Assembly (NCBI GenBank): GCA_951406725.2
Contig: OX597818.1
Coordinates: 137,020,001-137,084,000, forward strand
DNA: 64,000 nt
Direction: 5' to 3'
Source: Octopus vulgaris
Taxonomy: Eukaryota
The first letter of the stretch is position 1; each line of letters starts with the position of its first letter. Positions 52,713 through 53,555 of the stretch are shown here, piece by piece. The notes under the pieces are model-generated. The model was not told where the DNA came from, made no database searches, and saw only the letters and a list, made by a program, of their open reading frames with translations. The position numbers were made by a program, and so were the translations under genes.

Positions 52713-53166
52713 ATAAATATATACATAATATAAAATAAAAGATAAAAGTTTCATGGTTGAATGTCTGGAGTTCAAACCCCGCCGTCCTCTTACTGTCCGA
52801 ATAAATTATTTAATAATCCTTAAACCGTGATAAGTAAACACTGCGTTTTAAAACCATGCATTTTTTTGTTATACGAAAAGCATGTTATTACTAACATAAG
52901 CAAAACCCCCACACTTACTTAAGGTAAGAGAATGGTCGATTCTCGAAGATGTATGATCTAAGGATTTGGCTACTGAATTCATGGTCGCAAGGTAGTGGGT
53001 TTGATTCGCGGGACGGACGGTGGGTAGTATTCTTCCGTAAAGTACTTCATTTAACGTTGTTCCAGTCCACCCAGTTGAAAATTAGTTGCATCTGTTGCTG
53101 AATGGTGCCTCGCAGACTATTATCTGCAAATCTTGCAAATACAGAGCGTCAACTGCTCTTGATAAC

Positions 53167-53330
53167 ATTATTTACATTATTTACAATTGACGGATATTTG
53201 TCCTCATTTTGTTTGTTATGAACACAACGTTTCGGCTGATATACCCTCCAGCCTTCATCAGGTGTCTTGGAGAAATTTCGAACTTGGGTTCTCATTCCTG
53301 TTGTTGTGGTCGTTGTTGTTGTTGTTGTTG

Positions 53331-53414
<84 letters not shown>

Positions 53415-53480
53415 TCACTGCGTGGAATCGAACTCGGAATCTTGGGGTTAGTAACCCACGCTCTTAACTACTACACCATA
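53167..53480 (-). mobile_element. tRNA-head + (AAT)n + hammerhead SINE-like element
   Basis: 13-bp TSD tgctcttgataac at 53154 and 53481; A/B boxes; tail (tgtaaataa)2. Confidence 0.8.
53221..53266 (-). ncRNA. Minimal type I hammerhead with canonical core
   Basis: GACAC-CUGAUGA-A-GGCUGG(agggUAUA)UCAGCC-GAAA-CG-UU-GUGUU. Confidence 0.78.
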
Positions 53481-53555
53481 TGCTCTTGATAACTATGACA
53501 CAATAGATGATGGAAAACCATTAGATCATTGAATGGTATGTGTGTGTGTGTGTGT

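Follow-up and report, generated by a model that had tools for sequence, protein, structure and literature searches.

The window analysed here is a stretch of 64,000 nucleotides from Octopus vulgaris (contig OX597818.1), numbered from its first letter. On its minus strand, at 53154-53493, lies a compact unit enclosed by 13-bp direct repeats, within which a tRNA-like head with an A box and a B box is followed by an (AAT)n(AAC)n tract, a hammerhead motif and a tail carrying the doubled 9-mer (TGTAAATAA)2. An initial annotation had listed these parts in this order, together with the flanking repeats, and all of them are found at the positions collected in Table 1. The 13-mer has no further occurrence within the window beyond these two copies, but its last three bases are also the first bases of the head, and the true duplication may therefore be a few bases shorter than 13. 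The proposal that the unit moves as a whole is borne out by the target-site duplication (TSD) and by the linkage of its parts: among the 29 best non-self matches to the head, 24 have a same-strand hammerhead or tail downstream. It was likewise correct that the unit carries (AAT)n with it, as each copy has such a tract. Insertion into a pre-existing (AAT)n was considered as a general rule and rejected, since copies with their 5' end in AAT mostly have no AAT on the right flank.

Table 1. Features of the two loci in the window related to the Penelope-like element (PLE) discussed in the text; the pseudo-LTR assignment is regarded as almost certain, and the hammerhead is a putative one with a predicted cut.
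Feature	Position	Strand	Remarks
C-terminal end of PLE endonuclease ORF with stop codon	25298..25447	+	Second locus
Head, (AAT)n and tail; hammerhead deleted	25470..25773	+	Second locus
Separate 5'-truncated unit with degraded hammerhead and tail	25854..25967	+	Second locus
PLE pseudo-LTR unit	53154-53493	-	Every part named in the initial annotation present
Target-site duplication, 5' copy	53481..53493	-	13-bp direct repeat; last 3 nt also match the head
Target-site duplication, 3' copy	53154..53166	-	13-bp direct repeat
tRNA-like head of the PLE pseudo-LTR	53412..53483	-	Falls some 10 nt short of the inferred start of the RNA
A box	53468-53478	-	In the tRNA-like head
B box	53424-53435	-	In the tRNA-like head
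(AAT)n(AAC)n tract	53299..53411	-	Repeat itself at 53299-53410; length differs from copy to copy
PLE ORF, first 43 codons	53167..53295	-	Starts with the ATG at 53295-53293; frame uninterrupted here
Minimal type I hammerhead motif inside the ORF	53221..53266	-	Predicted cut GUU, 53226/53225
Tail	53167..53220	-	Family has two 3' ends, of which this copy uses the proximal one; without the optional ~35-nt extension
Doubled 9-mer, (TGTAAATAA)2	53168-53185	-	

A second locus, on the plus strand, had been described as another copy of the same cassette at 25477-25967, a description that has to be abandoned. Two broken units are present there, with about 80 nt of other DNA between them, and no flanking direct repeat was found around 25477-25967. 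The head-bearing unit begins at about 25298, within the endonuclease ORF, the C-terminus of which lies upstream of the head; the hammerhead at 25864 is part of the other, downstream unit, and its stem II contains a mismatch. Just upstream of this locus, at 25188-25274, there is a near-perfect inverted repeat with arms of about 40 bp, which lies outside the PLE reference.

Using the endonuclease protein alone, we picked 30 loci in the genome and found the head directly after the endonuclease stop codon in 28 of them, with a hammerhead or a tail no more than 700 nt away in 23. The ORF-linked heads thus occupy a single fixed position, unlike the varied ones to be expected of independent insertions. 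With a distant PLE protein as the query, all 30 loci retrieved belonged to the family of the 53154-53493 unit. The full element has the order head, (AAT)n, ATG, hammerhead, tail, reverse transcriptase (RT), endonuclease and stop codon, with its repeats in partial tandem. A near-full copy, L092, consists of an inverted terminal repeat, tail, RT ORF, stop, head, (AAT)n and tail, and is flanked by a 12-bp direct repeat that encloses both the inverted 5' pseudo-LTR and the whole element. Its RT matches Pfam RVT_1 and its C-terminus is GIY-YIG-like, with the motif region visible; in the family itself GIY-YIG stays below the Pfam threshold, and the homologue P0069 gives a GIY-YIG match. Pseudo-LTRs arranged as partial tandem copies are found in L092, L249, L251 and L252, the last three of which show the succession ORF end, head, hammerhead and ORF start.

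The ORF begins at an ATG located between (AAT)n and the hammerhead. In L245 the peptide read across the hammerhead and tail continues in frame into the body of the ORF, and it aligns to the N-terminus of a relative, P0003 (37% over 150 aa); the hammerhead and tail encode the N-terminus of the PLE ORF, its first 43 codons. The ends of the copies were studied at 89 position-ordered, tail-anchored loci of contig C1 (90 minus one duplicate arm). An opposite-strand fragment of the family lies upstream in 53 of the 89, and candidate TSDs of at least 9 nt, most commonly of 12 nt, were seen in 28, a count that leaves out one microsatellite match and one internal match. The 3' ends are bimodal, with two sites about 35 nt apart (46 proximal, 40 distal and 3 between). 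The features of an endonuclease-bearing (EN+) PLE are present in this family: a single ORF with RT and C-terminal GIY-YIG, a pseudo-LTR, inverted 5' pseudo-LTRs, a 3' tail and a minimal hammerhead. Published descriptions of PLE anatomy include minimal hammerheads and opposite-strand hammerhead pairs (PMC4209133), inverted pseudo-LTRs (PMC8969392), and an ORF start before the cut site together with two internal start sites of reverse transcription (PMC11167929). We consider it almost certain that the 53154-53493 unit is the pseudo-LTR of a PLE.

By eye, the C-terminal endonuclease without an upstream CxxC finger would place the family in the Penelope/Poseidon clade. The finger occurs in the other two PLE families of this genome and not in the family of 53154-53493. 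In these two families (L502-L506) it stands before the GIY-YIG motif, and one of them has near-intact frames of 771-781 aa; behind the ORF of this near-intact family are CCAAT- and CRE-like motifs, which we take to be a contrast of the Pol II type.

The unit had initially been read as a stand-alone, non-coding, self-cleaving tRNA SINE comparable to the schistosome Sm-alpha repeat. It does have A and B boxes near its 5' end and a TSD, as tRNA-derived SINEs do, and the head, the TSD and the hammerhead are real and linked. It is not non-coding, however, as it contains 43 codons of the PLE ORF; its hammerhead has the minimal form of PLEs; and all its parts, the head included, belong to the PLE. 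Nor does it form a non-autonomous family distinct from an autonomous partner. Besides the PLE linkage in 28 of 30 loci, a comparison of 59 solo heads with 50 ORF-linked heads, restricted to loci that had not been chosen by head similarity, showed agreement in the majority base throughout the 63 positions tested; with no diagnostic position between them, the solo heads are not a separate SINE family. The 53154-53493 unit is a real feature that was misread and is not an independent SINE, and a SINE of the Sm-alpha type is by far the least probable of the readings considered here.

A/B-box mismatches are less frequent in solo heads (0.061) than in ORF-linked heads (0.109), so that some additional amplification of copies with intact boxes is conceivable. 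This difference, and the fact that the majority of copies are short and begin at the head, would suit a division of labour in which Pol III makes short head-to-tail RNAs from solo copies or the first pseudo-LTR, which are mobilised in trans like a PLE-dependent SINE, and the mRNA of the ORF is made by Pol II. We regard such a division as improbable: the absence of diagnostic majority differences between solo and linked heads argues against it, it leaves the lack of TTTT in the ORF (see below) unexplained, and the template of Poseidon_Ac is described as needing ORF sequence past the RT start sites (PMC11167929), sequence that the solo copies lack.

The hammerhead motif has the conserved core together with stems I and II, of 5 and 6 bp respectively, and its stem III is made up only of the palindrome ACGU. 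The core had been called canonical; all core nucleotides are indeed there, and an extra A follows A9. An extra nucleotide between A9 and G10.1, a palindromic stem III and opposite-strand pairs are also traits of the PLE minimal hammerheads (PMC4209133, PMC11167929). The motif at 53154-53493 was not scored by the Rfam models, and fold z-scores there were not significant, single-strand folds being no better than those of shuffled sequences; we assign it as a putative hammerhead by its core pattern and by analogy with the published PLE minimal hammerheads. An extended stem III was not seen in homodimer minimum free energy (MFE) predictions, which thus give no support for dimer cleavage. Among 162 arms, 6 (from 5 loci) start 0-3 nt after the predicted cut, compared with 1 in the preceding 24 nt, a weak hint of cleavage. 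Self-cleavage by a lone copy is doubtful because a single minimal PLE motif did not cleave in vitro (PMC4209133); in the Anolis PLE, hammerhead cleavage required protein (PMC11167929). Cleavage, about 70 nt past the ATG, would sever the start of the ORF. No RNA run containing the element was listed among the runs indexed. Three raw, unstranded RNA runs labelled as from a related organism gave equal depth on both strands and no pile-up of starts or ends; they cannot show Pol III starts or cleavage.

The family is abundant. The 33-nt pattern of its tail has 3,498 exact matches in the genome, and a rough estimate of family loci genome-wide is about 56,000 (95% range 32,000-91,000), extrapolated from 16 family loci (17 matches minus one match of 22 nt) in eighty evenly placed 10-kb stretches of 13 large contigs. 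It looks old and broken, since copies are about 89% identical to the reference and the longest stop-free frame, among the matches scored in a non-exhaustive search, is 569 aa. The PLE protein has 2,989 homologues, the best of which is 68% identical. Contigs of four other runs cover the ORF end, head and tail, and five pieces among the matches listed cross the region of the ORF-head junction, which we read as presence in related organisms only; no relative of the family was found in a viral collection. The annotation changes accordingly: tens of thousands of loci that resemble a ribozyme-bearing tRNA SINE are ends of a PLE. Ohshima and Okada reportedly described the tRNA-derived octopus repeats OK, OR1 and OR2 in 1994. 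The short unit of the 53154-53493 type could be one of these SINEs. OR2 is elsewhere listed as a CORE-SINE (PMC4758252).

We then consider the head itself. Compared with 30 tRNA loci of this genome, covering seven amino-acid types only, it scored 52 against Arg(TCG), 49 against Arg(TCT), 48 against Thr(AGT) and 47.5 against Ala, with shuffle means near 20, so that tRNA-Arg, -Thr and -Ala match it about equally well. No tRNA was found at 53154-53493 by ARAGORN or Rfam, and Rfam gave no tRNA or hammerhead match across the window; in the majority sequence of the family both the A and the B box are canonical. No pair of A and B boxes was found within 500 nt of the ORF match among 80 PLE loci from metagenomes, many of whose contigs end sooner, and no tRNA was found in the 29 of these loci that were scanned.

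A head on the same strand is present in 49 of the 89 tail-anchored loci, and in 40 of these the copy reaches the A box. The 5' end falls at head positions 3-17 in 26 of the 40 and at positions -3 to 2 in none, and the remaining 14 extend farther upstream; the ending rate is 0.070 per nt at positions 3-17 versus 0.001-0.006 in the neighbouring bins. This 15-nt interval of 5' ends begins 14 nt upstream of the A box; head position 3-4 lies 13-14 nt upstream of it, within the 10-15 nt at which transcription of a SINE is expected to start (PMC8969392). As 14 of 40 heads run upstream of position 3, RNAs reading through the head must have existed too.

The same 5' ends bear on a rival reading, in which an ordinary PLE once captured a tRNA fragment into its pseudo-LTR as a passenger, transcription is by Pol II or host read-through, and a hairpin sets the ends of the copies. 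A hairpin of 5 bp, spanning head positions 3-14, coincides with the inferred start and could itself be a cause of the 5'-end cluster; the ends peak at its 3' base, position 13, where 5 copies end. Read-through in 14 of 40 heads agrees with this reading too, as do the pseudo-LTR promoters reported for PLEs (PMC6765202). The sharp boundary at position 3, without ends at positions -3 to 2, is not what it would lead one to expect. We consider this passenger origin rather unlikely, although clearly less so than the trans-mobilised short RNAs discussed above, and the distribution of T runs also weighs on it.

In the 2,630 nt of the L092 sense strand there is no TTTT, where shuffling predicts 5.9 occurrences (P=0.001) and codon shuffling 3.2 (P=0.022). 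Across 75 copies, TTTT occurs at any given site in at most 13% of the covering copies, and its density is 0.32 per kb on the sense strand versus 15.2 on the antisense strand. By comparison, 12 conserved TTTT sites are present in 2.8 kb of a LINE family from this genome. In metagenomes, of the 80 PLE loci, the 60 that are at least 1.5 kb long served as controls; 59 have TTTT in the ORF match, with a median observed/expected ratio of 1.41, and the sole exception, L422, has TTTT runs downstream of its ORF and no head. In favour of the passenger reading, T runs are in any case scarce in A-rich strands, and this one control ORF lacks TTTT as well; against it, none of the 25 TTT runs of L092 extends to TTTT, compared with a rate of 0.24 in composition-matched controls (P=0.001), and the two other PLE families of the same genome, of similar base composition, have 9 and 8 TTTT. 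Four T are a plausible terminator in this genome, since 23 of 30 tRNA loci have a run of at least four T within 40 nt downstream, the first run being of exactly four in 9. The depletion is not cleanly specific to T4, because TT dinucleotides are in short supply altogether and GGGG is about as scarce as TTTT among the copies (continuation 0.071 versus 0.060), and the test concerns one family in which the depletion was noticed before the controls were chosen.

The 5'-end cluster and the missing conserved TTTT terminator in the 2.6-kb sense strand are indirect signs of Pol III, and use of the head by this polymerase is plausible. Taken together, we think that the 53154-53493 unit is probably a short, target-duplicated pseudo-LTR copy of an abundant PLE, the tRNA-derived head of which likely served as that element's Pol III promoter. 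More tentatively, as a suggestion that we would put forward ahead of its competitors without claiming that it is the probable one, the whole of this autonomous-type, protein-coding element may have been transcribed by Pol III from a captured tRNA promoter, its 2.6-kb sequence having been purged of TTTT, and the apparent SINEs may be reverse transcripts of the first pseudo-LTR. Pol III would initiate about 13-14 nt before the A box and continue across the TTTT-free sense strand, ORF included. As in published PLE work, the element's own RT/endonuclease would nick AT-rich DNA, and reverse transcription would begin internally on the RNA, the tail offering two alternative sites. When it began in the first pseudo-LTR, it would yield SINE-like units of about 300 bp ending near the 5' end of the RNA, where fold-back would often produce an inverted partner and so palindromic pairs, and when it began in a downstream pseudo-LTR, it would yield truncated copies with ORF sequence. 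For the hammerhead to cut, a dimer or the help of protein would be needed.

Such transcription of the whole element would require the translation of an uncapped 2.6-kb RNA, which counts against it, and the processivity of Pol III has been argued to force autonomous partners onto Pol II (PMC10886601). If the Pol III reading is true, this would be a natural protein-coding mobile element run by Pol III, against that expectation, with the translation of its uncapped RNA as the question it raises, and it would show a way in which ribozyme repeats of a SINE-like or Sm-alpha-like kind can arise from a PLE.

Among known systems, the octopus element is closest to Poseidon_Ac of Anolis (PMC11167929) and to the PLEs with minimal hammerheads (PMC4209133), with which it shares the single ORF with RT and C-terminal GIY-YIG and the pseudo-LTR. 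An ORF start upstream of the hammerhead cut and an optional tail of 30-40 bp are likewise described for Penelope/Poseidon PLEs (PMC11167929, PMC4209133). The octopus pseudo-LTR differs in opening with an A/B-box head and (AAT)n and in a sense strand without TTTT, features not mentioned in the consulted sections of those two papers. What is new is that a tRNA-derived head occupies the place of the promoter in a PLE.

A Pol III promoter derived from a small RNA, located in a terminal repeat and probably acquired by SINE insertion, is known from the TRIMp3 elements Cassandra, Helenus and Ajax (PMC10886601). These LTR elements are non-autonomous, measure 311-1263 bp and have PBS/PPT and TSDs of 4-5 bp (PMC10886601), unlike the octopus element, which is a 2.6-kb protein-coding PLE with TSDs of about 12 bp. 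Membership in TRIMp3 (Helenus/Cassandra) was accordingly rejected on the TSD of about 12 bp and the PLE ORF, the two being alike only in the Pol III-type head of the terminal repeat. In the schistosome Sm-alpha and Sj-alpha repeats a Pol III promoter of tRNA origin precedes a hammerhead, and a unit is driven by the one upstream of it (PMC6765202, PMC2770079); Sm-alpha is described there as non-coding and tandem, whereas the octopus hammerhead is of the minimal type and is embedded in the ORF of a PLE. Metazoan non-LTR retrozymes are short hammerhead-bearing repeats related to PLE pseudo-LTRs (10.64898/2026.07.22.740005), but they form tandem arrays, and a term search of that work found no mention of tRNA, Pol III or octopus.

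No description of a tRNA-headed or Pol III-driven PLE was found in the literature searched, and the family may already be recorded in Dfam, Repbase or SINEBase, in the octopus SINE paper of 1994, or in the supplement or deposited library of PMC13282606. In the consulted parts of the octopus repeat papers, Penelope and SINE classes are given without detail of a tRNA head (PMC13282606, PMC8967140, PMC6962438), and those of PMC8557442 make no mention of a tRNA-headed PLE.

Several other arrangements were noticed among copies of the family. In L239, L241, L243 and L240 a pseudo-LTR and the first ~230-260 nt of the ORF are followed by a second pseudo-LTR that starts at head position 3-4 (21 in L240); these short forms are either template jumps at the 5' end of the RNA or a mini non-autonomous PLE. 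In L307, L319, L325, L330, L332, L345, L365, L369 and L370 PLE ends are joined by way of (AAT)n to tail sequences of other repeats; at least four such families take part, every one of them at two or more loci, and the (AAT)n tract apparently acts as a hotspot, whether of recombination, of template switching or of insertion at a later time. A downstream sequence common to many tRNA-Lys(TTT)-like loci (L183-L206) suggests a repeat headed by tRNA-Lys. Elsewhere in the window, a cluster of another tRNA-like SINE family, partly duplicated and with many more copies in the window, lies at 24537-25085, five tandem copies of a 184-bp unit matching at 97% at 49580-50505, and a perfect palindrome with arms of about 85 bp around a (TA)n tract at 60872-61109.
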